This document shows positions 6,308 through 62,419 of a stretch of DNA of 64,000 nucleotides, piece by piece. The notes under the pieces are model-generated. The model saw nothing but the letters and a program-made list of their open reading frames with translations. It ran no database searches and had not been told where the DNA came from. Position numbers and translations under genes: made by a program. Source of the DNA: Cystobasidiomycetes sp. EMM_F5 (lineage: Eukaryota); NCBI GenBank assembly GCA_051047955.1, contig JBPGPT010000012.1, positions 62,001-126,000 on the forward strand. The letters are read 5' to 3'. How positions within the stretch are numbered: position 1 is the stretch's first letter; every line of letters begins with the position of its first letter.

Positions 6308-6361
6308 AGAAACCTAGAAACGCATTTATAGCACCCATATCAGCAAAGCAAACCCGCAATC

Positions 6362-9300
6362 ATGCCTGCTCCAGCATCAAAGAAGCACGAGACTGCAAAC
6401 GTCGCCGTACCAACTCCAGTCAAGATCGCACCCGCTCAAGTAGCACTAGAGGGTAGCCATGCTGCTACCGCCGAGGAAGCCGGCAACGCTGGCGGCGAAG
6501 CCAAGGTCGACATTCACGCTCTATTGAGCAACACCGATGGCCTGGTTCGTGAGAATGCGGCCAACGAACTCGCCAACCTCGTCAAAATGGAGGGACCCCA
6601 AGCCTTTGTCCGTCTCGGCCTCGCAGACGCAATTTCCAAAGGTCTCAACGACAAGAAGGTCGCTGTTGCCCGTGAAGGCGCATGCCAGCTCATCGCTGTT
6701 CTCTGCCAGCAAGGCGTTGGACAAGCTGTAGAGCCATTCGTATTCGAAAAAGTCCTTCCTCTCATCATATCCGAGACTTTCGCCGACAAGGAGAAGCAAG
6801 TTCGCGCTGCTGCCGTCGAGGCCATCAAGCAATTCGCACGCATCATGTCACCATGGGCTGTCAACTTGATGTTGCCCGTTCTTCTTGAGCAAGTCCAAAC
6901 TGCCGGCAAATGGCAGGTCAAGACCGGTTCCCTTGAAATCATGGACCAGCTCATCACCACCCACCCTGCGCAAATGGCGTTGCAAATGCCAAACATTATT
7001 CCAGTCATGACTTTGGCTATCTGGGACACAAAGGCAGACGTAAAGAAGGCTGCCCGCGCCACCTTGAAGAAGGCCACCATTCTCGTATCCAACAAGGATA
7101 TCGAAAAGTTCATTCCAGCCCTTCTTATAGCGCTCGAGAAGCCAGTCGAAGAGACTGTCAAGACTATCCAGCTCCTCGGTGCTACCACTTTCGTATCTGA
7201 AGTCGACTCTCCCACTCTCTCCCTTATGGTACCGCTGCTGTCTCGAGGTCTCGATGAGCGACTCACTGCTACCCGAAGAAAGGTTGCCGTCATCGCTGAC
7301 AACATGGCTAAGCTTGTAGACAATGAGCACACCGTTCGTCCATTTTTGCCAAAGCTCCTTCCTAAGCTCGTCAAGATTGAAGAGACTGTCGCCGATCCAG
7401 AGGCTCGTGGTGTCGTTGGCAAGGCTATCAAGACCTTGCGCGAAGTCGGCAAGATTGAGGGCGATGGTACCGACATCCCACCTGCCAAGGTTCACACCGC
7501 CAAGGAAACCGCTCCCGTCGTCATTGCTGCCATCAAGAAGGCCAACGCTCAGACCCAGATGTCTGCAGAGTCTCCTTTGATTGTTTACATTGCCGAGCTG
7601 GTCGCTTCGCTTCTCAACGCTCGCAACTACGAGGCTACCGAATGGGACCTTGCTTTGCTCCCTTACGTCAACCTCGGTGTCCCTGAAGTTTCCAAGGCTC
7701 AGCCTATTGTACGTGACATACTCGACAAGTCTGCCAAAGTTGCAGGCGAGGCTGTCGAAGTCTTCGAAGACGAGGAGGAGGGCGAGGATCTCTGCAACTG
7801 TAACTTCTCCCTTGCCTACGGTGCCAAGATTCTCTTGAACACTGCTACTCTGCGTCTCAAGCGTGGTCATCGTTATGGCCTGTGCGGTCGCAATGGTTCC
7901 GGTAAATCCACTCTGATGCGAGCCATCCACAATGGCCAGGTCGAGGGCTTCCCATCGCCAGATGAGGTCCGCACTTTCTACGTCGAGCACGATATCGACG
8001 GATCTGAAGAGACCACCACCATCCTGCAATTCATCCTTAACGACAAGCGTATTTTGGCCGACGAGACCGAGGTCAGAGAGACCCTCAGAACTGTTGGTTT
8101 CTCTGATGACAGACAGCAACATGGTATCGGATCATTATCTGGTGGATGGAAGATGAAGTTGGCTCTGGCTCGTGCCATCCTCTTCAAGGCTGATATCCTC
8201 TTACTCGACGAGCCTACCAATCACTTGGACGTACTCAACGTGACTTGGCTCATCAATTACCTCACTTCCCTCACCACCTGCACATCCATCATCGTATCAC
8301 ACGACTCTGACTTCCTCAACCGCACTGTCACCGATATTCTGCACATCGACCGGTTCAAGGTCAAGCGCTACCCAGGCAATCTGGAATCTTTTGTCAAGCA
8401 CGTCCCGTCAGCGAAGGCGTACTACGAGCTTAACCCAGCCGATGACTACAACTTCAAGTTGCCAGAACCACCTCTTCTTGACGGTGTAAAGACCAAGGAG
8501 AAGAGTTTGCTCAAGATGCGAAAGGTGCATTTCCAATACCCAGGTTCACCAGCTCCGCAATTGCAGGACATCACCCTACAAGTCTCTCTCTCCTCCCGTG
8601 TCGCTGTCCTCGGACCAAATGGTTCCGGTAAATCCACCCTCGTCAAGCTGCTCGTCGGCGAGACTGAGCCCGGTTCGGGTGAGGTATGGAAGCACCCGAA
8701 CTTGGTTCTCGGGTACGTCGCACAACACGCCTTCCACCACATTGATCAGCATCTCGACAAGACTCCTCTCGAATACCTCTTGTTCCGTTACCAGACCGGT
8801 GAAGACATTGAAGAGTTGAGCAAAGCTACCCGCCAAATTTCCGAGGCTGAGGCGCAGAAGATGAAGGAAGGTGCCAACGTCGTCATTGAAGGCCAGAAGC
8901 GCGTCATCGACGAGATCTCAAACCGAAAGAAGCTCAAGCAATCTTACGAGTACGAAGTTTCGTTCAAGGCTATGTCCTCGTCCGAAAACGTGTGGATGTC
9001 TCGTGACGAGCTGATCAAGCGTGGCTTTGAGAAGAAGGTGCTCGAAATCGATACTCGCGAAGCTCAAAGATTGGGTCTCATGCGCCCCTTGGTCCGAAAG
9101 GAAATCGAGTCGCACATGGCAGACTTCGGCTTAGAAGCTGAGTTTGTTACTCACAATACTATGCGAGGTCTGTCTGGTGGTCAGAAAGTGAAGGTAGTGC
9201 TCGCTGCTGCCACTTGGCGTCGCCCGCACGTCGTCATCCTCGACGAACCTACGAATTACCTCGACCGCGAGTCCCTTGCTGCCCTGATCTCGGCATTGAA

Positions 9301-9667
9301 GAGCTTTGCAGGTGAGTGTGGCCGTCTTGAAGTTACGTATAGTCCTGACTTCATTGTTTGAACAGGTGGCTGTCTTATCATCACACACTCTTCTGAATTC
9401 AGCAGCAGTGTGTGCTCTGAAGTTTGGGCGATGAACAACGGAAACCTTGTAGCCTCTGGACATAACTGGGTTGAGGGACAGGGTTCCGGTCCACGGATCG
9501 ACCAAGGAAAGGAAGAGGAGGAGGACAAGTTCGATTCTATGGGCAACAAGATTGCCGGCACCGCAAAGGCCAAGAAATTGACCTCTGCAGAGGCGAGGAA
9601 GAAGAAGAAGGAGCGGATGGCCGCTCGTAAGAGAGGAGAGGAAGTATTTACTGATGATGAACTTTAA
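6362..9667 (+). CDS. YEF3: Translation elongation factor 3 (eEF3), ABC-F ATPase
   Basis: HEAT-repeat N-terminus, two ABC cassettes ([27 protein letters not shown] and [26 protein letters not shown]), chromodomain insert and basic C-tail. One intron at ~9312-9365. Confidence 0.97.
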
Positions 9668-10819: not shown

Positions 10820-11187
10820 AGCTGGTAGTGAAGAGCCAGGCAATTACGAGCTGTATTCCAACGAGATGTTTCTTCAAGACATTTTCATGCACACTGTTAC
10901 CCCTCTCACCCCCAGCTCGCCCCTCACGTCGCTTTGTTGTTTCCTGGGCGGCTGGTAATGCTGCTAGCCACCGGAAAAGTATTTGGTTTGCCCTTTCTTC
11001 CCACTTGCATTTCGGCTTTGCACCGTCCATGTTAACCAGACTATTGCACTGATAGCTGACAGCTGCTACTGCGTACCTGCTGCAATACCTCCTCCGTCTC
11101 CCGCAACTCCGTCGTGTGTCTGACGCTTCTACGCGTTCTGCCCCTATTTTCGTCGTCTCCCCTGCAGGACCCCAACTAGGTTCAATC

Positions 11188-13377
11188 ATGCCATTCGGAT
11201 ACAGCATCTCGACAAAAGTCGCACAAAACATACTCAATGTAACGACAAAAGTGTCTGAGTCTTCCGACGCGGGGGAAGCAAATGCGGGCGATGTGCAATT
11301 GAGCACTGCACTAGCCGCGGTCGACAAGTTGTTCAACGATGACCTGGCGGGCGCAAGAGCTACTCTCAACGATAACAAAGATTCACCTTACTCGGCTTTA
11401 ATGTTGGGCCTTCTAGAAGCGATTACTGCTCTCGTCAGCGGAGAAGAGGAAGCGAAGCGCAATGCTCATACTGCATTGTCAACGGCAAACACTCAGGCGA
11501 AGAAGATCAAGAAGTTGCAATACGCAGATGCGACAGCGTTCTGGGCACCCATGGCTCTACATTACGAGGTCTTCAACGCACTTGTTTCGGCTGTCACTAC
11601 AGTCAGTATTGCTTCATGTTGGCATACCGCTCCCGATTGCTGAGTTGTGTCTGACAGATTATCACGTATGACGCTGATGCGGGTCGTGCAGAGAAGGTCA
11701 AGATGTGCTATCACATCTGGAGTGTTCAGTCTACATACTTTAAACTATTCGGCTACATCTTCCCCAAGGGCATCCCTGAGTCTGCCTCAGTTAAGGCTAT
11801 CCTGAAAGACCTAAACGATCGCTGCGAAGCTGCTGCACTGGCCTCGAGAATCAAGCAAATGTGCAGCGAGAAAGCGGTCGACAATGGCAGAACGAGCTCG
11901 ATGGTCTGGTCTGCGAATCCGACAACTGCCTGGAGCGTCAGTGGTGTAGCATTTGGTATGGGCCTTTTTGAAGTCGCTCTGGCCCTTGTGCCGCCCAAGT
12001 ACAAGTATGTAGCCTCCTATTCAATATGGAATTACGGCACATCAATAACATTTGGGTACTTCCAGGTCCGTAGTAGGCATGTTGGTCGGTAAAGGCAGTC
12101 TAGATAGAGGCCTCAAGGTATGCGGTCGTGGCGAGGTGTGTCGTCGATTTAAACGCTGATTCTTGGTTGCTCTAGCTACTGCAAGTGTCGGCCGTGGCTG
12201 GCAATGATATCCACTCCTCCCTAGCTACAATGGCACTGACAACTTGTAAGCTCAGATGTCACGACTGTACATAGGACTGTCAACTGATGTAGGAACAACA
12301 GTCAACACCTACTCTCGCATGTTTGGCGGTTGGCAGTGCGATGCCGGCGCATTCCAGGCCTCCTGCGATGCGATATTGGACAAGCAGTTGGCAAGCCATC
12401 CGGACGGCAGTCTTTGGATTGTTGATAAAGCCAAAGCCCTGCGTAACGCCGGGAATTCCGACTCCGCCGAACACCTTCTCCGCACCGGCTTGGCTCGCGA
12501 AGCTGGCTACCATCAAGCGAAGCTGCTACTCAGCTTCGAACTCGGCTGGCTGCTCCTATCGCAGAGCAGATACGAGCCGGCATCGCAGCAGTTTGCTGCC
12601 ATAGCCGGCTACACCCGTTGGTCGCATGCGACCTGCTTCGCTCTTGCTGCCGGCTGTCTGCAAGAGCTCCGCAACCGAACAGCCACACAGCAAGACACGC
12701 TGATACAGCTGTACGACAAGATGTCAGCCAGCTTCACCCAAAAGGGCGAAAAGGGAACGCCGCCCTCTATGGATGTCTACCTGCAAGGTCGCATTTCCTT
12801 CTACGGAGCCAAGACACAGCGCTGGCTCGCAGAAGGTCGTCTGGTCTCGACTAAGGCGGCGCACTGGTCCGACAGTGTGTGTATCGGCCTTGCTACCGAG
12901 CTGGCTATCCTGTTTGCTCAATACACGGTCTACGACATTGCGACCGCAGAGCGACTGGTCGCACACTTCGAAAGCCTTGTCGGCTCCTGCAAATCTGGCC
13001 TTGATACACCAGAGGAGCAGAGTTTGTGCCAGCTCCTGCTGGGTATCTGCCATTTGCAGGCGCAGAATTTCCCCGCGTCCCGCAAACACCTCTCACGGGC
13101 GGAAACGCTCGCGCTTGGTGGGAGCCTTCACAAAGCGTATGGCTTCATCCTCCCGCTCTCCCGCTTCTGGCTGGCTCTTCTAGAGTGCCGCGAGGCGGAT
13201 GCCGATACCGTCAAGGCCAAAGATGCGGAATGGTGGGCGCCACGCCTGGCTGCTGCGGAGCAAAGGCTGGCGCAGGTCATGGCACAATCCGACTACGATA
13301 TGAACGGACGGACAGAAACGCGTGTTGGTCTGCTTCGAAGCCAGATTGCCATCAAGAAGTCCAGTCTGGCCATTTAG
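11188..13377 (+). CDS. Iml2/TTC39-like TPR protein (DUF3808-like), divergent
   Basis: VDKLFNDDLAGA, GVAFGMGLFEVALALVPP, HPDGSLWIVDKAK, LSFELGW and TRWSHATCFALAAGC resemble the Iml2/TTC39 family; multi-exon. Confidence 0.75.
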
Positions 13378-13886: not shown

Positions 13887-16800
13887 ATGCCGTATGCAGA
13901 GCCGAATCGAGCTGGTCAATCGTTTCCGCACACCTCAAACACTGGAGTGGGCAATTTGGGACTTCGCCAGAGACCTCTGCCAGCACCTCCTCAGCAAATA
14001 AAGCGAGTACCGGCACCGGCGATCCTGGCACCCGTGCTACATCTGGCGACTGCACAGCGTCCAGCAGGCAGTGTACCAATACTCGACCTGGATCTAGGAC
14101 GCAGTGATAGCGCCGCATCCAGTCTAAGCGTCCAAGTCCGCAACCTGGTGGACAGGCACAGACTAATCAACGCCGAGGCCGGACGTGCTAGGCCAAACGA
14201 GATGGCTGACTTTGTATCAACGACGAGGAGACCCTTGCCCGGCCTGCCAGAGGATAGAGTCAACGTGCCATTTACGATATCAGGCCAAACGATTCATACT
14301 ACCATACATCCAACCCACGCTGCCACTTACGGGCCTTCTCAATCACGAATCATTCAACATGCTTCGCATCATCCCAATTGCCTGCCGAGCGGTGCTGCTC
14401 GTCAGCCTACGTCACTTCGCGCAGGGCTTGGTCAAGCGGCCTTTGCGCAGCAATCTCTAGGTTTACCCCCACGCGACGGTACTCTGGCGAGATCTTTCGC
14501 GAAGGGCGGATCGTCTATCCTTCTTCACAAGGGTTTCTTTGATCTGCTTTCGGTTACGACGAAGCCCCTAGTCGATCCAGGCGAAGCGACACCTCCCGGA
14601 AGCCTTCGTGCCGGAAAGAACGGTTGGTCTGTTGATACACCTTCGAAGAGTCCTACGACAGCTACTGCCTATGCGGAAGCGAATGGCGTAAAGTACGACC
14701 AGATGGTAACTGCCCCCTTACGATATCTGCAGCAGACACCACCGATGACTTCCAACAACAAGTATCGGCGCATTTCGGTCGATATGATAGGTCGACCCAC
14801 GGGATTCACGTAAGTTTCCGAATGTAGGATGCAGCAATGATCTATGTCGATACTGACTGCTGCGAAATTGCTTAGCCATTTGGTACATGCATCGGATGCT
14901 GAACAAGCTGAAGCCATTTTGACGCGATGGCGAGTAGATGCAAGCGGAAAGCTGCCAGGTACGCACGGTCCCAATCTACACATCTTTTTCTATACTGAAA
15001 GATTGTACCCCATATATTGAAATGGTTAGAACCAGCGTGGGCTGCTGCTCTGAAACATGCAGCAGTCGAGCGTGCTCGGGCACGCGCTGTAGCTCAAGTA
15101 CAAGCCAATCTTGACGAAGAATATGCAAAGGGATCCTTGAAAGTCGTGAACGGGAATCCCGATTCATTCCTGAGCCAAAGCTCTGATAGAGCCGATTTGG
15201 GGTCGCATGGCCACTCGCCGAAATCTGACAATCAGGGAGCGGCGCGATGGACAGGAATGCCTCTAGCATCACCGCCTCCTCTGCTAAGTGGTGAAGGAGC
15301 ATCTCCTGCCTTGCGTTCCTCAGCCCGCTTGTCCGAGAATAGACAAGAGGGCGGAGCAAGCGTCGATGACGAAATTGTTGTGCGGGAGGATCTGCCTGTA
15401 CAGGCTATTCACCCACGCCCATCCACATACAGACTACCTCCAGAAGATATAGTACGTACGCCAGATACTGTCGTCTTGCGCAATGCCGAGACTGCAACAG
15501 GGCTACGGGCCGCCTTCTTCGATGACGAAGGTCGCAGCACTACCAGCCAACAGAGCGATGGTTTGCGCAAGGCTTTAGCAACGTCGATCAATGGCAAAGC
15601 GTTCAAGCCCTCGTTAGAAACGGTGGAAAGGTCCGTCGCGACCAAAGTATACCTCGAAAATCATTACTATGGCATTCTCAAAAGGCCACGGGACCGAGAT
15701 CAACGGCGCGCCGCATTGGAGCGGGAATTGTCGAATGCAAATATGACTGATGCGCAGCGCCGAGCGATACGAACGGCATGGATGACATCAGAGACCGAGC
15801 ATCTCCGCAATCTTCGTCAGCGCATATCAGCAAACTCTTTTGCCAAGCTGAAAACGATCGGTCATGGAGCATTTGGTGTTGTATCTCTCGTCAAGGAGCG
15901 CGGAAGTGGTCAACTCTTCGCAATGAAACAATTGCGAAAGGCAGACATGCTACGGAAAGGACAAGAAGGTCACGTTCGAGCGGAAAGAGACATCATGAGC
16001 GCAGCGAGTGCATCAGCAGATTCTCGTTGGATCGTCAGACTGGTATATTCTTTCCAGGATGTCGACCATCTTTATTTGGTAATGGAGTACACCAGCGGCG
16101 GGGATCTTCTCAATCTTCTGATCGAGCGAGATATCTTTCCTGAAGATTTCACGAGATTTTACATTGCAGAAATGATTCTTGCCATTCAGGAAACGCACAG
16201 GCTGGGGTATATCCATAGAGATATCAAGCCAGACAACTTCTTATTCTCCAGCAGCGGACATATCAAGATTTCAGATTTTGGCTTAGCAACCGACTTTCAT
16301 TGGGCGCACGATGGCGCTTACTATGAGCAACAACGTCGACAACTGCTCCGTAAACATGGCATAGATTTGGACGAAGGGCCTGCCCTTCATGCAAACACTG
16401 GCAAGCGGTTCAACGCAACTCTGGATGTCGACTTTTCCGACATACCCGTAGTCGACGGCGAGAGGCCAGGCCACAAAGGAGTATTAACTTGGCGTGACAA
16501 GAACAGGAAGAAGCTTGCGTACTCCGTCGTTGGCACCAATTCATACATGTGTCCAGAGGTCATTAGAGGCACAGGTTACGATCAGTCGTGCGACTGGTGG
16601 TCGTAAGTTACTTCTTTTGCGTTGCGGTCCCATTCGGAAGCTTAATAATCTCTCTTCGCCAACTAGACTTGGCGTAATCATGTTTGAGTGCCTATTTGGT
16701 AATTCCACCTTTCACCGCTCATTCCACATGCCATGCTGAAGTGCACTTGTCAGGATATCCGCCTTTTGTATCGAAGTCTCGGCACATTACCCGCCAAAAG

Positions 16801-17543
16801 ATTCTCAACTGGCGTTCTCATCTTCGCATACCCGGAAAGCCTGCTATAAGTTCCACGGCGCAGCACTTGATTGAGTCGCTCATCTGCGAGCAAGATGACC
16901 GCCTAGGTCGTGCCATCGGTCCATCCACCGTTGGTCGGAGCGCAAACTCATACGACAGGTCAAGTGCACTAAGGGATGGAGCTGAAGACATCAAAGCGCA
17001 CAGTAAGAACATTACGTGACCTGTCGGCTTGCTCTGGCTAATGCACGTATTTTAGGGTGGTTTAAAGGCCTCGACTTTCAGACACTTCACCTTCAAACGC
17101 CCCCCTTCATTCCAGAGCTGCGTAGTCCCGGTGATACGCGATACTTTGAAGACGACATCAAGCCAGAACCGCTCGGTAAGGTATACTGTGAAGTAGGTGG
17201 AAAGAATGCTAAATGTCAAATCTAGCTGCTCCAGACGCACAGCCTGGACAAGCTGAGGCCACGAAAGATCCCTTGCTACGTGATAAGGAGCATGGCAAGT
17301 ATCTGCTGGAAGTCAGGAAGCAGCTTGCATTTCAGGGATACACCTTTGTCAGTGGTCTTGCCTCTTTCTTGAAAATCATGCGCTGAAAGTTGTTCTACCC
17401 AGAAATCGCCGAAGCAAAAGGTGTATGACCCTCTCACTGGTATTCGTCATATTGCGGGAGAGCTAGAAGCAGCTCATGCTGACAGAGGGCGTTCCACTTT
17501 GCGCGAATCGAGTTCAGGATTCAGGAGAGCAATGTCCATTTGA
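13887..17543 (+). CDS. AGC Ser/Thr kinase of the NDR/LATS family with a long N-terminal extension
   Basis: Mob-binding NTR (ETEHLRNLRQR), GHGAFG, AMK, HRDIKPDN, DFG followed by a long insert, AYSVVGTNSYMCPE, and hydrophobic motif FQGYTF; spliced from the 13887 exon to the stop at 17543. Confidence 0.9.
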
Positions 17544-18611: not shown

Positions 18612-21489
18612 TCAGCTAGTAAAGGAGGGCACGGAGTGCATTTTGGTGTTAGCCAGCGGTCGATAGTCACCGGTGGGTGAATCAACTCGATACATCTGAA
18701 TGCGAGGTCAGCGAACTCCATCGGGAGCGACATGTTGGCTTACCTTGGTTTTAACAGGTATGGGCAGCCCGCGAGAGTCGATGATGCGATCCTGCGCTTC
18801 GGTTGGGGCCAAATCTGGCAAACCATTCGATATAGGCGGGGCCAATCCGTTTGCTTCCACAACGACCTTCTCCGCCTTTTTGGGTGCTGCAGGTGCAGCT
18901 TTCAAGGCAATGGAAGATGCTTTACCATCGGGAACATAGATCAACTCCATGAGATCGTCGCCGCTGGCGACTTTATCGACAATGTAGAAGCCTTTCCGCT
19001 CAAATTGGATCGTGTCGCCTTTCTTCAGGTCGCGCAAATTGGGGTCTGCGAACGCCTCCTGCCGGAACTCGGTAACTGGGTTGATGTAATCTGTCCATTC
19101 GTCCGAGTCTTCGATTCGCCGCTTAGTGATGAGGTAGTCGTAGTCTTTCAGTATGACAGAAAGTAAAGGTGCAGACTCTGTCACCGCCAGCCAAGTGATC
19201 TTTTTACTTGTCGCTTTAAAATCGCCAGCAAGATGCAGTTTGAAATTCAATGACTTGATCGGCGAAGAGACGTCCTGATTGTCCACTACAGCGTTGCCCC
19301 AATCCATTAGCGTGACTTCCTCGTTCGCTGCGAATGATACGGCATCTTCCTGCTCGATGTACATTTTTGACGAGTAGAAGGTCGTTTTGCTTCCAGCACC
19401 GGCGTACTTCTTGTGCTTCGGCAGGACGGCAGAACTTGTCGAGACTGGCTTACCCTCCTCGTCGACTACGTGACACTCGACACTGCCACGTCGCTCGTGT
19501 CAGATAAACAGACAATCATGGGGAAATCAAGGCTTACAGGCCCTCCTTCAGTACGGCGGTGTGCCGGGGTACGACCGGATCCAAAACTTTCTTGTTTGCA
19601 GTCCAGATACCATCCCAATCCAGGGTGTTATTCTGTTGCGACGGACCCTGAGCCAGCATGTATTGAGTGAGCGCCTCTACCGCCATTCCACGTCTTCGCA
19701 CGCCACGTATAGTGGGGAAACGGGGATCATCCCAGCCTTCGACCATTTGTCGATCTTCCACCATAGCCTTCAGCTTTCGCTTGGATAGCAATGTATAAGC
19801 AAAGTTGATGCGTCCATAATCCCATATCGCCACTTTACGCAATCCGAGCGCTTTCTGCATCCACCAGTATTGAGGATTCCGATCGCGGTATTCATTCGTA
19901 CGAAGAGCATGAGTAACACCTTCAAGCGAATCCTGTGTTGTCGAACTCAGTATCACATATGGCAACGAGGAGAATTCGGGCGACTCACGACTACCGGGCA
20001 AGCAAAGTCGTACGTTGGGTACACCTTCCACTGCGTGCCCGTACGATGATGAGGCTCAATATTGCATCGGTAGATGACGGGATCGCGCAAGGCCTTGTTG
20101 GGATTATTATACGACAATTTTGCCCGTACACACCATCGCAGACCTTCCACGCTGCCTGTAGTCATTTCGGCGAATCTTGCTAGGTTGTCTTCAACCGAGG
20201 CGTCACGTCGAGAGGACGGTATGCCTTCGCGCCGCTCGTGCTGCATTTGCTCTTGTGGAGTATCGTCCGCGTAAGCCTTATCGTTCTTTATAGCCTCGAT
20301 TGCAAACTTGTAGATATCGTCGAAGAAGTCCGATGTGTATGAGACTTTGTCACCGACAATGTCCAGGAGTGCCAGATCTTCGATGATTGATTGCTGAAAC
20401 TCTGCCTTCTCTTTGCTTGGATTGGTATCATCGTATCGCACGATAAATTTACCTTGATACATCCTCGCGAAATACTTGTTCAAGATGGCTGTAATCGTGA
20501 TTAGCCTTCGCACAAAAAGCATACCCTTTCGCTTTTATGCGACCAACCTGCTTTCGCATGTCCTATATGTAGGTAACCAGAGGGTTCGGGCGGCAATCGA
20601 GTTACCACCTTACCCATCTCTGCGCCTTCTAGACCCAGCTCAAAGGTCGCGTTTGAGGTACGGTTGCGTAATTTGTCCTTTTGAGCAGCTACGTAGGCCG
20701 ACACGGATGACTGTACAGCAGGCAGGGATTCGATGTGAGAGTACCACCGCGCAACATTGGCGTGCTGCGCTCTTTTCAGCAGTCCGAGAAAGACAGTACT
20801 GCCTAATGACGAAAAGAGCAGGCAATTGCTCAGCACATAGCCTGGCGAGTGGAGCTGAACGTGTTCCCACCCTTGGCTGCTCCCCATAGAGCAAAGTCCG
20901 CCGCAGTCGGCCTGTATCCAACAAGAAATGACCGCAGTGTGAGGTGATGATCCAACTGATCTACGACAGCTGTAACGCTGGCGAAATCAGCAGTCTTTCC
21001 GAATTCGCGTTCCGCAAAGGCGATCCAGGTGGTTATCTGTCGCGAAACTTGGGGTTAGACATGACGATAGATAGCCACTGTATTGTATTGTATTGTATTG
21101 ACCTTCTCAGACTCGGCTTTGTCGTGGCCGAGCACTCCAACAGATGCGAATGCTTCGGCGAGTGACCTTATAACGCTAGATAGGGTATTGCAGGATGCGC
21201 TGTTCAGTCAACGCAATACCAGTCAACATTTGCCGTTAGCAAAGTAAATGTGAATTTCATCAGCATGATGACTGAGATCAATGGATTCCTGAGCCTCTTG
21301 TACGAGAGCCACGCACCGCCCGCTGTCTAGCCTGCAGATTTCGTTTGGATCCTCGGACTTTTCCTCGTACTCGATGCTAATTACGTTTTCTGTGCCAGAG
21401 GCCTGCGTGATGTGACTCGCCAATGCCAAAGGGCCGTACGCTGGCGGTGAGCTCTTCGTGTACACCGTCAGTCTCGACGTCGATGCCAT
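18612..21489 (-). CDS. GUS1: Cytosolic glutamyl-tRNA synthetase with a GST-like N-terminal domain
   Basis: RLPPEPSGYLHIGHAKA (HIGH), RYDDTNPSKEK, YPTYDFACP, LLSKRKL, GWDDPRFPTIRG and IQFERKGFY. The last exon encodes MYRVDS..SFTS*. Confidence 0.96.
21079..21100. repeat. (TGTAT)4 microsatellite in a GluRS intron region
   Basis: tgtattgtattgtattgtattg read directly. Confidence 0.8.
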
Positions 21490-32037: not shown

Positions 32038-32120
32038 GCAGCTTTCAAGTTTCACCTCTATCACAACGTTCATTCTTTCTTTTTAACAAGTCTTTTACAC
32101 ATATCGACATCTAGGCAAGC

Positions 32121-34004
32121 ATGACGAACCCTACACAGCAACTCAACCAGAACTTGACGGGCACATTCATCGATAACGGAGCTTTGGAACTGGTTTCAAT
32201 AATCGGCATCGGGGCATATGGCGTCGTATACAAAGCGCTGGCGAGGGATGGCAAGTTTTATGCAGTGAAGTGCCTCAATAAAACCGGTCTCGACACCCGG
32301 CAACGGTCATTTCAGCGCCGAGAAATCGCCTTGCACACCCTGGCCTCCTCTCATCCTAACATTGTTACGCTACACAACGTGATCGAGACATCAACCTGCA
32401 TCTATGTTGTCTTGTCCTATTGCACAGACGGAGATCTATTCAGTCAAATCACTGAGAAATCCCGCTACCTCGGGAACGATGCTCTCATCAAGGACGTCTT
32501 TCTGCAGATCGTTGATGCTGTGGAATACTGTCACCGGCTCGGAATATACCACCGTGACCTCAAGCCGGAAAATATTCTGTGCGACGCGCAGGGTGCACGT
32601 CTCGTACTGGCCGACTTCGGCCTCGCCACTGCTGAAAAGACGTCGGGCGACTTTGGCTGCGGTAGCACATTCTACATGTCCCCTGGTGAGCAATCTGTTT
32701 TCAGCTTTACCTCGGACTCCCTAATGTTTTTCTGCAAATTCCCCAGAGTGTCAGGGCGGTCTTTTTCAACGCCTTGGATCATATTCAACCCTTCATAACG
32801 ATGTCTGGTCTCTTGGTGTCATGTGAGTGTCAGTCTACTATGGAGATTTGCTATCAGCTCATGTGATTGCCCTCGCAGTCTTGTCAATCTGACCTGCGGG
32901 CGCAACCCATGGAAACAAGCATGCCCCTCTGATGAAACATTCCGCGCCTATCTCTCAAATCCGGATTTTCTCCGATCCATTCTCCCTATTTCCAAGCAAT
33001 GCAACGAGTTGCTGAAGCGAATATTCGCATTGAATCCGGCGTCACGTATCAGCATCAAAGAGCTGAAGGCCGAAGTTAAACGCATGACCAGATGGACTAT
33101 GACTTTTGAAGAGCTCCGGTACGCAACACGCGCAACGAAAGAGGCTGCTCGCGCATGGGCCCCAGCGCATATACTTGATGAGCCAAGCATGGCAGAACCC
33201 ACACCAGCAAAGTGTCCATCACCAGCGCCCGTACAACATAACAACAATAACACCACCACCCCGCATGCAGCGACGCGACCAAAAATACATCGTGATGTGT
33301 TTGATACTACAGATTCGTCGACTGTATCATCTGTAGATTCCGCTGTCGAATGGCGACGCATGCAACAGCAGGAACAGCTATTGCAGCAGAGTCACCAAAG
33401 ACAGCAGGCACGGCAGCAGTACGCAAGTCCTGTGGTACCATCCCCCATCACATCGCCCTCATCATCTTCTGCCTATCAAGAACCATTACCTCAGCCGGTA
33501 ATCAAGCCTTCCCCAGTGACGGTGGTCCCAAAGTCAATTATAAACATGCGTTCCAATTTCTCCCTATCCGACAGCGAAGACACATCAAGCGACGAAGACG
33601 AAGAAATGCCGTATGCCGGACGCTCCCAAGCCTACACTTCCAAAAACCGTTTACAAGAGCAGTCACACCACACTTCACATCAGCAAAAATACAACACTAC
33701 AATACCCACAAAACAACACGACTATGCGACGCGATCTAGGAAGGTGACTCCACCGCCTCTTGCTGAACAAGCGCCCCGAACACCAAGGCCCTTATTCAGC
33801 TCCCAGCCGCACAGGCAGAGGAAGCAGTCTATCGAGTCGACTTCTTCATCCAGCTCGGCGTCGTCTGATGCCAGCTGGACCGGCTTGCCGCCGACGCCAG
33901 ATACGCCCATATTTACAAAGCGACCGCAAGGTGCGGAGGTCGCGCAGGAAAAAACTCCAACGCGTGGTTTCTCTCTCGGCAACACCAAGCTCAAGCTCTT
34001 CTAA
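32121..34004 (+). CDS. Ran1/Pat1 (Sks1/Vhs1-like) Ser/Thr kinase with an S/Q/P-rich tail
   Basis: GIGAYGVVY, YAVKCL, FQRREIALH, HRDLKPENIL, DFGLAT..DFGCGSTFYMSPE and LVNLTCGRNPWKQA are characteristic of RAN-family kinases; two coding introns. Confidence 0.92.
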
Positions 34005-35826: not shown

Positions 35827-38800
35827 CTAAGGACCGGCTATGCGTTTCGTTATACTGACAGCCATCTGCGTGAGAGCCGCTTTGCGGACTTCAACTAGTT
35901 GAGTGGCAATGTCCATCAGAACGGCTTCAGCAATCTGTAATAGTATGTGCCTCAGCGAAACAGCCGTGACGCAATTCGCCTTCTCGTTCTCGTACCTCTC
36001 CACAATGCTGCAGTGATCGCAGATTCTCTAGCTTTTGTTTTCCTTTATATTGCTTTGCAAGCTCTTCGACTAGTGCTTTCAATCGTGATGATATGCCCTT
36101 CAACGAACTTTTTGCCTCTTGCCGCACCTGGCGGAGGCGTTTCATTTCCTTGAAAGCGATCTCACTCGCCGTTGTTGACATACTTTGATACGCAACATCG
36201 AGAAGAGCGTAGGCCTTTGAAGCGAACACTGTTTGAGCAGTATGCTAAGGTAGATATTCCAGACACACACCTCCAAAGCCGTCTGTGCAGTATGTAACAT
36301 AGTCCATGGCAGCGCAGACAAAGTGTAGGACGCAAGTTGTGCCTGGCATTCTGTGGAAACGGTATTAATACACAGATGGGAGAGCAGTATATTATGAACG
36401 GCACCTTTGAAGATTTTCTGCAGGTCGCCGTCTGTCGGTGATGGGTCTGCATGTCCCGACAGCCAAGCCAACATAGTCTTCGCCCACGACAACAAAAGGC
36501 CTTCCTGCGCTGAGCATTCTGAACTGTTCATTTCGGGCATCATATGCATTTGAGACAAGAAGTTGATATAGAGAGTGCCAATCGCGGCAATCCACGGCAT
36601 CTGATCAGGTGCGCATCAGCATTGCTACTGAACAACTCAGCAACGCGAACTCACATTGGTTCTAGGTGCAACACTGCAGCTTTCTTGGATCTTACGCCCG
36701 TGTAATGATGTGAGGCTGGGTAGGACAGTGTCATCACGATTGTCGTATACGATAGCTGAGATTCAAATAAGCGGCTGCATGTCTGCTTGCATAGACTTGA
36801 AATACTGACAGAGGTCTCCGAGCGTTCTGCGGATTCCCGCCAACAATTTCGTACTTTGTGCAGAGTCGAGACTTTCGGTCATTAACCTGACCCGCACGCT
36901 CTCCAGAGACAGTGCTTTTCGCGCTAGCGAATGTTGAAGGCGGCAACGCAGTAAGTCGAAGTCTTCGATCTGTGAGCAAGTTGGTCAACGGCACTGCATG
37001 GAGTCGTAATGTCGGCGCACTACTGAGAAGGACTCCCTCTGCCAAGCTTGCGTGGATGACTGTGTGATCTGACACCGTTGTGAGCTTACAGTAAAGGTTG
37101 GCTGCGATAATGTGCACTGATACTGACATCGCTATCAGCCCTGCTGGGATACCATGCGACTATCCACTTGAGAGCGTTACTGAGACTTGTCTCCACGTGT
37201 GATGCAGGTGCTTCTGGGGTTACCAGCATTGATGCAGTGTCCGTAGAAGCTACAGCCAAGACCGCCGCTCGGTCAAAAGCGAAGTGAGAAAGGGTGTCGT
37301 ACTGTATTTGCCGCACACCCATGCCGTCGAAGTGTTTCATGACGAGTCGCGGTGCTCCAAGCAGGGTATAGAGCCTGATCAGCAGCGCACGAATCTGATA
37401 GCGGTATTTGCTCCGTCGAACGGCAATTTCGAGTATGGCGACCGCGAGCTCAAGATGTGCGACGCGCCCTACGATCAGCAGAAGACATCAGCCCGGAGGC
37501 ATCGCTGCAAAACGATCGTATCATACCAGAAATCGTCCAAGCTGAGACGTAAGCCTGTCCAGCAAGCAAAGCTAAATCATCGGCTGGCTGCAGATCAGTT
37601 GGCGCGTACCCATCACCTATCAAAACGGTCAGGGCAGATCTGGTATCATCAAGCGCTCCCCGACGAAACTCACCCAACTTCATGTGAGCAAAATACGCCT
37701 TGGCGCAGCGATGTCCTCTATCGAGCTCATTTTCATAAGATGTAGCAGGCAGTCGTAAATGGCTTCGTATCTTCTCCGCATTCATCAATTGCTGAAGCTT
37801 CGAGATCGTCTGAGTAGTGCGAGTCTCAACACACGCCTATGCTTGTGCTTGAGATAACCTTACAGAGCTAACGCCAGCGTTGAGTCTATGTTGCCCATCC
37901 AAGTGCTGCAGCAGTGTACTGCTAGCAGCCTCGCTTGACGAGATCGATGCTATATAGGGTATAAGATCGTCAAAGCAGCACATCTTGTCAGCGTGTCGTC
38001 GAAAATAGAGCCAAATTAGGTCTGTGCAAGGTGTCTTTAGCGCGAACCAACTGCAACGTAACGCTGTCAACCTACCCGCCAGAACATCGAGGGAGCACGA
38101 GTCCTGTGAGCTCTGGGCGATGAGACGCAGGAGACCCAGTGTCAAGCCACGCTCCTTCTTGCTGGGTTCAAGCTCGTCTTGGCTACGACTTTCGAGGGTC
38201 TGTTTCATGCGGACCATTAATTGAAGGTATGGATCTTGGACATGATCACCAGCCGTCTGCCACCAATCCTTATTCTGTCCTATACTGGAAGCAGTGGGCT
38301 TACTGCCCGGATGCCTTCGCGTAGCTATACTGATGACTGTCTCTATGACAGACCAATCGGATTCGCCGGCATCCAGAGTGTCCAACATCTGTCTACCCAT
38401 TTCCAGCAGTCCAGCTTCATCTTCGTACTCCAAGAGGATTTGACGACACAGTAATGCCACGTCCAGACTCTTGCCGCATACTTCGATAACTTCTGAAGAC
38501 TTGATGAAGCGGATGAGTATTTCACGATGTTTTGCATGATCGACGTTACTTGATTCAAGCTGCTGCAGATGAACCTGGAGAAGGCGTATCACGAGATACA
38601 CCTTGTGCGGCGTATCAAGCGGTAAAATTGAGTGCTCGGGGTCACCCCTACCTTTAGAGTCGATATACGTTTCGAATATTCCCACGATTCTTGCGAGCTG
38701 AGAAGCAGCTTCCGTAGGCTTTGCACGCGCGTGTAACAGGATTGCCATGGCACCGTACCAGAAACCGAGATGGTGGGCTGCAGCCTCATCAGGCATAGAC

Positions 38801-39626
38801 GGGCTCCGTTGGCTTTTGATTGGTATAGTTGATGGTCGGGCAGAGGGTTGTGTAAGAAGAGTTATGCTATTGCAGGCCTTTGCCAGATGACCGTATGCTG
38901 CAATTTGCACGAAAAAGTAGGCTGCTTCGATGTTTAGCTGTATATTGTCGGTATGTCGTTCAACAGCGTCCTCCCATAGTCTGATAGCATCTTGCTCTAG
39001 CAATCATGCGTACGTAGCGCGCAACACACTTTCGCCATCAGTCAACTTGGTATGGAATCACTACTGCAAGAACGCACCCTTTCCAGCTTGTTGCATGATC
39101 CAAGACAGAAATGCCAACAGATCAGTGTCGCCCAAGGCCTTTCCCTTTCCCTTGTCGTCTCGGGCAATTTCTTGCGCTTGACCCAGTGCATCTTCAACAT
39201 GGCCTTGTCGTATCCAAATCACAGATTGCAATGCCTAGCAGGGAGACCATGAGTGACACCGTCATATGAAGCGTACCTCGCAATCTCCGCCAACCATACC
39301 TGCACAATTGGCCAGTATGGCTTAGCTTTCAGTGAGCGCTGGCAGTGCTGGCCAGCAGCCTTGAGCTGGCCTGTCAGTATCGCGTCTGGAGATTGTGAAT
39401 CCAACGGCCAATGGACCAAAAAGCGCACACATCAGCACCCGCAACTCGTCCGTTTAAGAGCAGCAGCAGCAGCAGGACAGCAGCCCGATTGTAGCGCTAC
39501 AGTAAACAGCGAGAACTGCGCTGGAAAGACAAACTGACTGCATATAGGTTCCAACGCTCGCCGGTCTGCAGGTCCAGCCGAGAAGCGCCGGGCCTGCCAA
39601 AACTCGCGGACCATGGGGTCCGACAT
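35827..39626 (-). CDS. MDM20: NatB N-acetyltransferase auxiliary subunit (Mdm20/NAA25)
   Basis: N-terminal RALEPI.|NAIL, ERGLTLGLL, YFRRHADKMCCFDDLIPYI, PTDLQPADDLALLAGQ and MGVRQIQYDTLSHF; multi-exon. Confidence 0.88.
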
Positions 39627-53952: not shown

Positions 53953-56900
53953 TCACGAAATGTAGGACATTATGAAGCCGTCGAGATGTTGCAGCAACGC
54001 TCGAGCGGTCACACGCTTGATGTCGGCCCGATACAATATTTCATCAAGGTGGTGTGTGCCGTCAAGCCAGGGCAGCATACTGAATATCGACACAGTCAAC
54101 ATCAGGCTTAAGAGAAAGTACAACTCGGGATTGACTGACCTGCGGAAGGTGCGCGTGATTGCTGATCCACCAGAAGCGGCCTCTAGATGAAGCTCGATTT
54201 CTGCAATCCACAACTCCTCCTCTGCCGTCGTCTCGGCAGGAGTCGCAATGATGGACGGCGCCGTGAGCGCTGACAGGAATATGCATCGCGACTTCTTGTC
54301 TTTGGAATGTCGAGCAGGTCGGTCGAAAGTGCCAAGATGGCTCTTCTTTGGATGAGCAGCTGCGGTCGCAGCCGCCGCAGACATGTACGGATAGCTTTGT
54401 GGGAAACTGCTTGGTAGCGGACTCCGCGGCACAGTATTCATACTCGGACCATCCGAAGATCCGGTTCGCTGGGTTGATGAGTTGGAAGTGATTGTGATAT
54501 TGGAATGTTCCGATACGCGCGATAGACTCTCCGACTCGTGAATGCTGGACAAGCCAGTATCACTCCTCTGAATAGGTCTACCAAACCTTGCGCTCCCGTC
54601 TTCGTCATCGCCATCGGTGGGGTCTCCTCCATTTGCGGAACCGTCCGATGACTCTCGGCGATGTTTCTGCCTCGCTTCCTCTCGCTCGTAAGCTTGCCTT
54701 TTGATGTCTGGCGAGGCTACCAAAACCATGTAAAGATGGGCCTGGACAATCAGTTCCCGCTGCAGCAACCACACTAGCGTCGCATTAGCCATCGACTTCG
54801 AGACATGCATTGCCTTGGTATGGACTTCAAAAGGCACCGGAGCAGACATTTCTGCGAGCAAAGTTGGAAGAGGCGGCATTTCGGGAAATTCGTGCGCAAA
54901 GGCAACTGCGTCGTTGGCGAAACTGTCGCAAGTAGCGTCAGCTACTGACATACTGACCGCTAAAAACTGAAGGAGACCAACGATCGCGGTAGCCCAGTCC
55001 CAGTCTCGCCGCAGGCTGGCATGTAAATCCCTTTGATGCTTATCGCGTCAATGAGGCGCGCCTTACGCCAGTAGATCAGATGTTCTGCGATCTCGATTAT
55101 TGTTTGAGTGTCAGTGTCGAGCAAGTGTTCGTACTCGGCAAAAGTAAGACTGGATATCAACAAGCATGTTTTCTTTAGGTGAAACGGGTGCGAATAACCA
55201 GCGAGTACTCACGTCGGATCGATGATTTGTAGGAATCGACAAAGTAGTCCCTCCGACTCGTCATCAATCTCTCGCAGCATTTCCTCCGGATCTCGTAAAG
55301 GCAGTAAAGTTTGCCAGGGGGCCAGGTCGAGATGTGAAGATTGGCCATGTAAAAGGCTGTGAGTTACAATGCTGACGAGCCTGGCAAAGCTGAGCCCATT
55401 GGCCGAGTTGGCGCCTTTGGGGTGTTGGTTTGACCGAAGATAGCCGTTGAACCTGCTATTAGAGGAAAGTCCGCCTAGAACCGAAGATAACACTCTCGCA
55501 TTAGCGAAGGATGGTCCGCGACTGTACATTGAGCCGGCAGGATTGCCGGCGGGACGAAAATTGTCTTGGAAGAGCTCAGTATGAAGCAGTACGGACATGT
55601 CAATGTCGTCGTTTAGGGTGAGATGCGCAATGCCGTCCTTCTTCATACTCTTGTAGAGAGACGCGAGCTGCGCACAAAGTGATGATCTCGTAATCAGATC
55701 CTCTATGTGCGGTGTCAACCCGGTCCCGGATTCGACTGCCTTTTCTCTGATGCTCAATATTGCTTCCGCCTCACGCGATACGTACGAGTCCCGCCTTTCT
55801 TCGTATTTAAGTCCTGCCATCAGTGGAACAACAATGTCGCGATAGTACACGCCGAGATGTTGGGAGAGATGCTGATCCGGGGGGTAGTCGATGACTAGGA
55901 CAACAGCCCAGGTATCGAGGGTAGCTGCCGGAGCGCCGGATGGCGACACATCGTACTGAGCTAGATGTCCCGATCCTGACGACACTTGCCGTCCACTTTT
56001 GTGTTGGAAGCCGACGGGATGCCCGTTATTGCGGCGGCTATCAGCGCTCAGGTCGCCGACTGATGTCGAGAGTTCCTCGATAGGAAGCGAACGGCCTTTT
56101 GAAAGAGTAGTCGACATGCTTGCTCCACCCAAGACCGAGCGAGCCAAGTCGGCTTTATTTGCCAAAGTACCAGGCATGTTACGATCAGGCTGGTATGAAT
56201 TCGACATCCTACGGCCTGCTCCAAGCGACTCTCTCGTTGCTGGCAGGATTGCGGATGCTGCAAGATTTGACAGCTGCGATGGATTCGCTATGGCGGGTAG
56301 CGGATTGAGCGAGCTTCTAGCAGGAACTGAACGTGATCCTCTGCGGGAAGGAAAGCCTGATGTTGACGTCGATGCAGCAGAAGAACTACCCCGCCGAGCT
56401 CGTCCAAGCCTTGCCGAGCGACTCAGAGCCCGCGGCAGAGACTCTGTATCGCTGGCGTCCGTGTGACTGGCAAGGCTCTCGTCTTCGTCTTCGCTGCTAT
56501 TTGTCAGAGCACTCTCGCTGACTCGAGTAGCCCCGCCTTCACGCTGATGGCGACGCCGTCGCGAAGGTGGGTCCTGTTGTATGTTCTCCTTCGTGGTCGT
56601 TCCGTGTTTTCCCCTTGTCGACTTTGCCTTGACGCTTGTTGGATGAGCGATGAATGCGAGATGGTTTATGACCATTTCGAAGCGCTTGTTGCATAGCTCC
56701 TTGCGCGGGCAAAGCAGAGTACCGAGCACGCCAGTATCGACTCCCAAATGATGCTTGAAAGTTTCCGTCTCCCGCTGTTCCTTTGTAGCATACTCGTCTT
56801 GGTCATGATACCACTCTCTTCTGCGAAGGGCAGAGTCCGAGTCTGGCATGTTGTCATTTCCGTACGAGAGCCTGTCTAGCTCGGCGTCCATGTCACTGTC

Positions 56901-57236
56901 GGCTTCTTCGCTGCTCGACGAGGACGATTCGCCGCGGATGAAGCGGGATCCAAGAATATCCAGACCGTGTTGTGCTAAATGAGCTTCTGCATCGTCATTA
57001 TCGTTGTCGTTGTTGTGCACCGACTCAGCGCTCCGGTGTTGACGTAGTCCGTTGCGCAATTCATCATCCGAGTTTCCTCCACTGCTGCGCTTCTGAGCAT
57101 CTCTGACAGCGCTCGACTTGCCATACAGTGGCTTCTGGACTCGCGGTGTTGCAGCAGCATTAGGCGGATATGCAAAAAGTAGCCGGGAACCGCTAGCCGA
57201 GCTTGCAACGAGCAAGACGGATAGCAGCGAGGCCAT
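53953..57236 (-). CDS. NPR3: Nitrogen permease regulator 3 (GATOR1/SEACIT subunit)
   Basis: LLSVLLVASSASGSRLLFAYPP, LLCPRKELCNKRFEMVINHLAFIAHP, GLKYEERRDSYVSRE, PWQTLL, AEHLIYWRKARLIDAI and PWLDGTHHLDEILYR. Confidence 0.92.
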
Positions 57237-57628
57237 TCTTCATTGATAGGGGTAAAAGTATTAGCACTAATGCGCGAAATGGGCGAGATTGGCTATCTTG
57301 ACTGTGCAACGTCGAGAAATGACGCTATTGCGACGCTTCTTTCTGCTACGGAATCAGCTAAACGGGGAGTATTTCGGAATCTCGACGCGATTTCAGTGTC
57401 TTGCGGCATGCAGGCACAGTCTCCGTTTGCCTGAAATCATGTTTTGACTCCAACCTAAGCCATCGTCGGTCGCCGCCACCAACTTTGGCCCCTGGAACCT
57501 CCTCGACGTCCACGCAACATGGACTTGACGACAATCCAACTAGGCCTGCGACTGTAACTTTCTGCCTGGTCACACCCACCAGACTCTGCACAAACGACAA
57601 GGACAACTGCCCATCTTTCCCGTCAGTC

Positions 57629-60595
<2,967 letters not shown>

Positions 60596-60886
60596 ACAAG
60601 GAAAGCCAAACGAAATTAGGCGATTGAATGAAGCAAAGTTTAGTGTTTTTAACAGTGCACGGCCCAACTGAGGTCTCTTCACTGTCTCGCGTGCTAGACT
60701 AGTTCTTACTGTATCCTGTAATAACACTGCAAGCTTCCGCAAGTGCAACGATGTGATTGTTTCGTGGTGCTTAGTCATCCAGTCTGGACCTGGCTGACGC
60801 GTTTGCGAGAGATGCAAAGGCTACTTCTGCTACAGTACTGATCTGCGAGACTTGGGAGAATTTCCTGATACTTGTGAACAGACGCC

Positions 60887-62419
<1,533 letters not shown>

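Follow-up and report, generated by a model that had tools for sequence, protein, structure and literature searches.

A splice-assembled CRIB-like motif in an NDR-family kinase of Cystobasidiomycetes sp. EMM_F5 and its fungal homologues

Gene structure and the intron-split motif

The analysed stretch of DNA (64 kb, hereafter the window) contains, at 13887-17543 with the stop codon counted in, a gene for an NDR-family kinase of 1080 aa, composed of eight exons and seven GT-AG introns of 50-71 nt each; this gene and all features described below are on the plus strand. The gene model was built from the ORF list, tblastn of four orthologues and translation of the exon model, which has no internal stops and ends in a conserved C-terminal tail. 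Exon 1 (13887-14809) encodes the N-terminal extension, aa 1-307 plus 2 nt, and its ORF matched no Pfam family at E<=1e-4. Its 3' end carries a basic leader and then the first half of a CRIB-like motif (ATG ATA GGT CGA CCC ACG GGA TTC AC, ending at 14809). Intron 1 (14810-14875; 66 nt, GTAAGT...CTGAC...TAG) interrupts codon Thr308 in phase 2 and has a branch-like CTGAC site 23 nt from its 3' end. Exon 2 (14876-14958) starts with C CAT TTG GTA CAT GCA TCG GAT, encoding the second half of the motif, H-L-V-H-A-S-D, and continues as A-E-Q-A-E-A-I-L-T-R-W...G-K-L-P. After intron 2 (14959-15029; 71 nt, GTACGC...TAG, phase 1), the remainder of a conserved block of about 90 aa is found at 15030-15154 (E-P-A-W...A-V-A-Q-V-Q-A...L-K-V-V-N-G). 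A putative N-terminal regulatory region, of the Mob-binding type, and the kinase domain to subdomain IX occupy 15611-16602 by Pfam and PDB matches; exons 4-8 (16667-17543) encode the C-lobe, the AGC tail and the conserved C-terminal tail, and the later introns are at 16603-16666, 16699-16753, 17003-17055, 17176-17225 and 17348-17402. No Ras-family domain was found among the 94 long ORFs of the window.

Removal of intron 1 joins KYRRISVDMIGRPTGFT to HLVHASDAEQAE, within residues 292-320 of the protein. The basic leader and CRIB-like motif (14760-14894, aa 292-314) then read K-Y-R-R-I-S-V-D-M-I-G-R-P-T-G-F-T/H-L-V-H-A-S, the slash marking the intron. Thus the sequence M-I-G-R-P-T-G-F-T/H-L-V-H-A-S-D, which an earlier note on this DNA had obtained by joining the exons, is confirmed in the predicted transcript, with the intron in phase 2 within the Thr codon. 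After splicing, the core I301-H312 (I-G-R-P-T-G-F-T-H-L-V-H, 14787-14888) matches the consensus I-S-x-P-x(2-4)-F-x-H-x-x-H and its spacing, with Gly at the second position, where many orthologues have Ser. The final V-G of the CRIB consensus is absent; its place is taken by A-S in the window protein and in basidiomycetes, and by T-E or A-E in early-diverging lineages. An in-frame TAA at 14811-14813 excludes read-through of intron 1. When the window was translated in all six frames without splicing, the strict CRIB pattern, [ILVM][SGATN]xPx(1-5)[FYW]xHxxH, had no match, so the motif is indeed invisible until spliced, as the same note had stated. Its placement of the motif at the N-terminus was mistaken. 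The reading frame is open from 13866, the first ATG is at 13887, and the Met of the motif is internal residue 300; orthologues keep K-K-R-I-S-x-D-M before the motif and have about 20-370 residues further upstream. The motif is located about 300 residues into the N-terminal extension and about 300 residues upstream of the kinase domain.

The junction was compared with a profile of 98 columns made from 74 orthologues, the window protein being left out. The spliced protein scored 107.5 bits (E 1.9e-35) and aligned ungapped at both 14809/14876 and 14958/15030, while exon 1 by itself scored 12.6 bits and exon 2 by itself 40.2 bits. The exon 1-exon 2 junction, as predicted, is thus supported by homology. 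Five public orthologue gene models (P0059, P0063, P0096, P0099 and P0114) break at the point of the motif's intron. Because an intron commonly interrupts the motif, and five or more public models are broken there, domain scans of predicted proteomes under-report it.

Kinase domain and phylogenetic placement

The kinase domain has GxGxxG at 15860, HRD at 16214, DFG at 16274 (aa 751) and the activation-loop motif A-Y-S-V-V-G-T at 16517 (aa 832); the hydrophobic motif F-Q-G-Y-T-F is at 17330-17347 (aa 1029-1034). Between DFG and the activation loop, between subdomains VII and VIII, there is an insert of about 75 aa with a basic run K-N-R-K-K, and Pfam Pkinase was matched as two stretches. The best PDB match is Cbk1 (4LQP, 272 bits, in one stretch, query residues 197-523), ahead of STK38/NDR1 (6BXI, 222 bits) and DMPK/ROCK/MRCK (147-155 bits); the best 60 PDB matches listed are all AGC kinases, with no PAK among them. 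The pre-kinase region is conserved in the family and aligns in one stretch with Cbk1 from chain residue 31 onward. The assignment to the NDR family in the earlier note is therefore borne out by Cbk1 and STK38 as top PDB matches, by the insert, the activation-loop Ser and F-x-x-Y-T-F, and by the trees.

In the kinase-domain trees, which were built without Dbf2/Sid2, a branch with 100% support separates 73 fungal rows, including all 25 CRIB-bearing ones, from LATS and NDR/Cbk1, and a 63-row IQ-TREE agrees with a separate fungal lineage. The named Cbk1 of Candida (P0268) and the Cot1-length protein P0275 of a Leotiomycete group with STK38 and plant NDRs, across this branch from the clade of the window protein. 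These trees suggest that the window kinase is one of an ancient group of fungal paralogues, a separate and well-supported lineage apart from Cbk1/Cot1/Orb6. The simplest alternative, a plain Cbk1/Cot1/Orb6 orthologue (the kinase of the MOR/RAM pathway) with a lineage-specific N-terminal tail and an incidental motif, would agree with the top PDB match and with several orthologues being named 'related to CBK1' or 'Cbk1' in their sources. However, both trees put P0268 and P0275 beyond the fully supported branch, and the conservation of the motif reaches well past one lineage, so that we consider this alternative improbable.

A branch of Pezizomycotina kinases without the CRIB groups with the clade of the window protein, and the conserved block was absent from the Pezizomycotina proteins examined. 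Saitoella and Pezizomycotina are joined with 97% SH-aLRT. That Pezizomycotina lost the CRIB secondarily is the reading we prefer on the basis of the trees; it is not established, as a Pezizomycotina branch outside all CRIB-bearing lineages was not rejected by the AU test (p 0.453). This branch may include Fg01058 of Fusarium graminearum, which a published study (PMC3245316) describes as a Cbk1-like kinase with no distinct yeast orthologue, its deletion resulting in misshapen ascospores.

Conservation of the motif and its recognition as a CRIB

The strict CRIB pattern is present in 201 of 240 homologues (98/120 in the 'longer' and 103/120 in the 'near' set), whereas 12,000 shuffled homologues yielded it 16 times; it is commoner than chance. 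The carriers belong to Basidiomycota, Mortierellomycota, Glomeromycota, chytrids, Blastocladiomycota and Saitoella; early-diverging and other carriers include, by genus, Batrachochytrium, Terramyces, Globomyces, Sorochytrium, Blastocladiella and Saitoella itself. It could be suspected that the resemblance arose by chance, or from the choice of splice sites, because the pattern is short and the junction was modelled from sequence. Either is very improbable in view of these counts, of the many homologues from other sources that are single uninterrupted predicted proteins with a contiguous motif, and of the ungapped profile alignment across the junction. Conservation in orthologues, on which the proposal of the earlier note depended, proved to be strong, with P, H and H conserved in at least 90% of the alignment of all 120 unselected 'longer' matches. 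The Phe is replaced in the rusts, with P-L-T-S-R-H in five proteins and Met in two Melampsora-type proteins, and in some chytrid copies, which have Val or Leu; thus the constraint on this classical contact residue is not absolute. In most orthologues a basic run (K/R-K/R-R) lies ahead of the motif, and the chytrid proteins contain two or three tandem copies of the CRIB.

The conserved block extends past the core (A-S-D-A-E-Q-A-E-x-L-L-x-R-W...D-P-x-W-x-x-P-I-K...V-V-N-G) with conservation at least equal to that of the core, and its profile recovers 111 of the 120 'longer' homologues. Such conservation, above what the CRIB consensus needs, could reflect a different or extra partner. Upstream, at 14526-14549 (aa 214-221), there is another motif, H-x-G-F-x-D-L-L, whose H, G and D reach 90% conservation or more; it was found in 154 of the 240 homologues, and in 145 of them it lies ahead of the CRIB pattern. 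When a chytrid CRIB region was used for a region-limited homology search, the query was the sole match, the ESM Atlas search gave no usable matches, and a homology scan of genome contigs retrieved distant bacterial kinases only.

The Pfam PBD profile (PF00786), with which the earlier note had suggested checking the motif, gave a divided answer. It was run on 38 chosen orthologues as proxies for the spliced window protein, with E-value limits of 10, 1 and 0.5. The motif site was matched in 16 of the 38, but only two of them, the chytrid proteins P0112 (33.1 bits) and P0241 (25.2 bits), scored above the gathering cut-off of 21.3 bits. By lineage, matches were obtained in 15 of 22 non-Dikarya proteins, in one of 14 basidiomycete-type proteins (P0083, 15.0 bits, below the cut-off, so that none of the 14 exceeded it) and in neither of the two Saitoella proteins. 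The matches mostly cover profile positions 1-13 to 1-17, and 1-23 to 1-41 in five proteins, the profile having 59 positions; the downstream part, positions from about 16 to 59, was not matched in most of the 38 orthologues scanned. In classical effectors the beta-hairpin/helix part of the PBD adds to affinity. With matches confined to approximately positions 1-15, and rarely reaching position 41 of 59, this part is not recognisable here.

These observations bear on the most serious alternative, that the block is derived from a CRIB, or is CRIB-like, and no longer binds Rho GTPases, serving instead as an intramolecular autoinhibitory or dimerisation element, or as a site where another partner docks, for example Mob co-activators, upstream kinases or 14-3-3 proteins. 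It is in agreement with the conservation of the post-core segment, which has no counterpart in the PBD profile, with the silence of this profile on 13 of the 14 basidiomycete-type copies, and with the rusts, which lose the Phe yet keep the remaining block. An R-R-x-S site adjoining the core, with Ser changed to Asp in Tremellomycetes, is also consistent with it. On the other hand, I, S/G, P, F, H and H are found at CRIB spacing in chytrids, Blastocladiomycota, Mucoromycota and Dikarya, and the deepest-branching copies reach or come near the PBD threshold. Moreover, the chytrids repeat the core only, in tandem, a pattern better accounted for by avidity towards a GTPase on the membrane than by one intramolecular contact. 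On balance we regard the loss of GTPase binding as rather unlikely.

Proposed function and comparison with known systems

The best explanation of the data, and in our opinion a probable one, is that the window protein is a CRIB-bearing NDR kinase, outside the Cbk1 group, that engages GTP-bound Cdc42/Rac. On the strength of the motif and its conservation we infer, with good foundation, that the kinase would be a direct effector of Rho GTPases. The sequence analysis shows the gene model and the NDR features as well as the motif and how deeply it is conserved; for GTPase binding and everything downstream of it, we infer the following as the likeliest mechanism. The basic patch and the CRIB would bind GTP-loaded Cdc42 and/or Rac1 at the membrane, bringing the kinase to places where polarity GTPases are active, and this binding may also relieve an inhibitory N-terminal contact. 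Activation would then be completed by the usual controls of NDR kinases, namely binding of Mob at the N-terminal regulatory region and phosphorylation of both the activation-loop Ser (S834) and the hydrophobic-motif Thr (T1033).

The window kinase resembles Cbk1, Cot1, Orb6 and NDR1 (STK38) in the insert with its basic run, the activation-loop Ser and F-x-x-Y-T-F, but adds an N-terminal extension of about 600 residues with the basic patch, the CRIB core and the block of about 90 aa. Cbk1, Cot1 and Orb6 are, to our knowledge, not reported to contain a CRIB. Like p21-activated kinases (Ste20, Cla4, PAK1), the window kinase carries its basic patch and CRIB core ahead of a Ser/Thr kinase domain; in contrast to them, this domain is AGC/NDR rather than STE20-group, and the CRIB is separated from it by about 300 residues. 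As only PBD positions up to about 15 match, the part that forms the autoinhibitory switch of PAKs is not recognisable. MRCK kinases (CDC42BPA/B) are a metazoan family of DMPK-type AGC kinases with a C-terminal CRIB behind other domains, whereas the present family is fungal and combines an N-terminal CRIB with a kinase of the NDR type. In CRIBs of the WASP family the second consensus position is Gly (I-G-x-P), and a basic run lies shortly before the motif. By these features the window motif may be of a similar kind, but the protein has no WH1, proline-rich or VCA regions, and it lacks the downstream G-x-D/hairpin part that belongs to the GTPase-binding domain. In the part of the literature that was searched, no NDR kinase was described as bearing a CRIB. 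The combination thus appears to be a credible variant undescribed so far.

Control of cell polarity depends on two main supports, the NDR/LATS kinases and Cdc42/Rac. In model yeasts, according to the portion of the literature consulted, the link between them goes from the kinase to GTPase regulators, for example from Orb6 to a Cdc42 GEF. An NDR kinase that reads active Cdc42/Rac directly would constitute an input that model yeasts cannot show. The chances are about even that this is a third NDR-family kinase ancestral to fungi, acting as a direct Cdc42/Rac effector by means of one to three N-terminal CRIBs, that persists in chytrids, Blastocladiomycota, Mucoromycota, Basidiomycota and the early ascomycete Saitoella and has lost the CRIB in Pezizomycotina. 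The kinase was not seen in the small number of named yeast sequences, which would account for its having escaped notice. If this is true, polarity GTPases feed a Hippo/MOR-like kinase module directly in most fungal lineages, several plant and animal pathogens among them, and there is a testable hypothesis for how basidiomycetes, mucoromycetes and chytrids shape their hyphae and yeast cells. Separately, Cdc42 genes were located in metagenome contigs with a degenerate pattern, at 106 loci, and the 22 intronless full-length ORFs among them were aligned.

The kinase gene and its splice-assembled motif

The NDR-family kinase gene, modeled by tblastn with four orthologues and inspection of splice sites, comprises eight exons on the forward strand (13887-14809, 14876-14958, 15030-16602, 16667-16698, 16754-17002, 17056-17175, 17226-17347, and 17403-17543) separated by seven GT-AG introns of 50-71 nt, and its product is 1080 aa long. 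Intron 7 (17348-17402, forward strand; 55 nt, GTCAGT...CAG), located directly after the hydrophobic motif, was included because it restores the C-terminal tail common to the orthologues; the frame lacking it stops 12 codons past F-Q-G-Y-T-F. The sole public entry for this gene, P0121 (529 aa), covers the largest exon only.

In the region 14784-14900, upstream of intron 1, the forward strand reads ...AAG TAT CGG CGC ATT TCG GTC GAT ATG ATA GGT CGA CCC ACG GGA TTC AC; the intron has the ends GTAAGT...GCTTAG, and exon 2 opens with C CAT TTG GTA CAT GCA TCG GAT GCT GAA.... This 66-nt intron (14810-14875) was the top candidate in a scan for fungal-type introns, with a GTAAGT donor and CTGAC 23 nt before the TAG acceptor, and its read-through is impossible because of a TAA at 14811-14813. 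The predicted spliced product is K-Y-R-R-I-S-V-D-M-I-G-R-P-T-G-F-T-H-L-V-H-A-S-D-A-E-Q-A-E, with the Thr codon split by the intron in phase 2. The earlier note was right that the ORF track does not show this motif, since the unspliced six-frame translation of the window holds no match to the strict CRIB pattern, [ILVM][SGATN]xPx(1-5)[FYW]xHxxH. Its placement at the N-terminus of the kinase had to be revised: the open frame extends back to 13866 and has its first ATG at 13887, so that the Met preceding the core (aa 301-312) is residue 300, and the orthologues conserve residues preceding that Met.

Assembly of the motif by splicing is supported by homology. A 98-column profile, built by script from an alignment of 74 orthologues (A3, window excluded), aligned to residues 291-379 of the predicted spliced protein with no gap at either junction (107.5 bits, E 1.9e-35), versus 12.6 bits for exon 1 and 40.2 bits for exon 2 taken singly. 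Moreover, five public Rhizoctonia/Ceratobasidium and Naganishia models (P0059, P0063, P0096, P0099, and P0114) break, skip an exon, or run into non-homologous sequence at precisely the point between F-x and H, the pattern that mis-calling of the same intron would produce. These broken models suggest that the intron inside the CRIB is common to relatives and often mis-annotated.

Immediately before the core lies R-R-I-S (14769-14780, aa 295-298), a site of the basophilic-kinase type R-R-x-S, the Ser of which is replaced by Asp in Tremellomycete orthologues. One might speculate that it is a phospho-switch beside the core.

Conservation of the block and its relation to the PBD

A search with the kinase exon yielded 240 homologues, half of them long (918-1946 aa) and half near-length (288-917 aa). 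The strict pattern occurs in 98/120 and 103/120 of them, respectively (201/240 overall), against 16 of 12,000 shuffled versions of these sequences. The invariance of the motif in A3 is circular, as its 74 rows were picked by the CRIB pattern itself; in an unselected alignment of all 120 long homologues, Pro and both His are each at least 90% conserved.

The 22 long homologues lacking the strict pattern fall into six groups. Two Melampsora-type proteins (P0029 and P0037) have Met for Phe, and five rust proteins (P0043, P0046, P0051, P0057, and P0070) carry P-L-T-S-R-H with the Phe gone, the rest of the block being retained in both groups. P0028 has the post-core segment only. Six are broken gene models (the five interrupted between F-x and H, and P0052, which starts later in the block), two are chimeric early-fungal models (P0111 and P0113), and six are devoid of the whole block (five Eurotiomycete ascomycetes and P0117). 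By profile, the block was found in 111/120 long homologues.

The window's protein agrees with the core consensus in I, S/G, P, F, H, H, and spacing, but has A-S in place of the terminal V-G. The Pfam PBD model (PF00786), run on 38 orthologues at E-value limits of 10, 1, and 0.5, matched the motif site in 16, namely 15/22 non-Dikarya, 1/14 basidiomycete-type, and 0/2 Saitoella proteins. These matches rarely reach formal strength: only the multi-copy proteins P0112 (33.1 bits) and P0241 (25.2 bits) score above the cut-off of 21.3 bits, the remaining matches lie at 12.3-18.3 bits, and the basidiomycete copies fall outside formal Pfam PBD membership. All matches begin at profile position 1 or 2, mostly finishing near 15; together with the core consensus, this supports a putative CRIB core without the remainder of the classical PBD. 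A precomputed PF00786 tag is present on a chytrid homologue, so automatic annotation has already caught the motif at least once. ESM Atlas look-ups gave no usable match, and a region-limited homology search with the chytrid CRIB region returned the query only.

The conserved unit exceeds a CRIB, consisting of a basic run, I-S-x-D-M, the core, and a long post-core segment (A-S-D-A-E-Q-A-E-x-L-L-x-R-W...G-K...D-P-x-W-x-x-P-I-K...L-x-V-V-N-G). The strong conservation of this segment, which is not PBD-like, and the loss of the consensus Phe in rusts speak for the main rival explanation, that the block was repurposed for another contact, which we consider rather doubtful. Binding of the block to a Rho-family GTPase, the effector role proposed in the earlier note, is moderately probable.

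A second conserved motif, H-x-G-F-x-D-L-L (14526-14549, aa 214-221), lies upstream of the core, at a median distance of 79 residues in 145/240 homologues; it is absent from the sampled Mortierellomycota, Glomeromycota, chytrid, and Saitoella proteins.

Kinase type, phylogeny, and taxonomic spread

Assignment to the NDR family is well founded. The best PDB match of the kinase exon is Cbk1 (4LQP, 272 bits, in one stretch including the pre-kinase regulatory region), followed by STK38/NDR1 (222 bits) and by DMPK, ROCK, and MRCK (147-155 bits). The NDR hallmarks are present: a post-DFG insert of about 75 residues with K-N-R-K-K, A-Y-S-V-V-G-T, and F-Q-G-Y-T-F near the C-terminus.

In a FastTree phylogeny of 154 kinase regions, sampled outside Dbf2/Sid2, all 25 CRIB-bearing rows lie inside one 73-row clade (100% support), opposite metazoan LATS (34 rows) and NDR/STK38, plant NDR, and Cbk1/Cot1-type kinases (47 rows). 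The clade includes a 33-row CRIB-less branch of Pezizomycotina. A 63-row IQ-TREE phylogeny recovered the identical split (100), with Pezizomycotina adjoining Saitoella (97), mirroring the species tree; here the window's protein falls with Pucciniomycotina. Secondary loss of the CRIB in Pezizomycotina is therefore likely yet unproven, because placement of this group outside all CRIB lineages was not rejected by the AU test (p 0.453). A Fusarium kinome study describes Fg01058 as a "Cbk1-like" kinase with no yeast orthologue and an ascospore-shape phenotype (PMC3245316); it may be the Pezizomycotina counterpart of the window's kinase.

The motif and its context are old. Near-length homologues include those of Mortierellomycota (...K-R-R-I-S-K-N-M-I-S-E-P-K-N-F-E-H-L-I-H-T-E...) and Glomeromycota. 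Among named relatives, the one closest to the window's protein comes from Atractiella (72% over 64% of the query). A full HMMER search with chytrid P0112 against 1.84 billion cluster representatives retrieved 142 (141 new and the query), nine with the strict pattern and 11 with the pattern or the block profile; the cluster names of these matches are Batrachochytrium salamandrivorans, Terramyces, Globomyces, Sorochytrium, Blastocladiella emersonii, and the early-diverging ascomycete Saitoella. The chytrid proteins P0112, P0241, P0245, P0387, and P0388 have the CRIB-like core in two or three tandem copies, one of which is at the extreme N-terminus.

Possible mechanism and genomic neighborhood

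By analogy with established CRIB effectors, the basic patch together with the core would bind GTP-Cdc42/Rac at the membrane, which would localize and perhaps de-repress the kinase; activation might then follow from the binding of Mob and from phosphorylation at S834 and T1033, as in other NDR kinases. Such a protein would unite two kinds already known, the CRIB effector kinases and the NDR kinases. In the full-text literature searched, largely that of non-subscription journals, CRIB appears only as a reporter or as a feature of PAK, WASP, or MRCK, never in an NDR kinase, and the pairing appears new.

No tRNA or Rfam families were found within the 64-kb window. The neighboring genes, recognized by Pfam on long ORFs (6332-9358 and 11056-13374, forward; 18711-20986, 37089-39003, and 53956-57239, reverse; 58488-62215, forward), are ordinary housekeeping ones: elongation factor 3, Iml2/TTC39, class I Glu/Gln-tRNA synthetase, NatB subunit Mdm20, and Npr3, as well as a Cdc48-type AAA ATPase and a proteasomal ATPase. 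The window also contains another protein kinase gene, of the CAMK type (32115-34001, forward strand; best PDB match CaMK1, 98 bits), which has a long Ser/Gln-rich C-terminal ORF.
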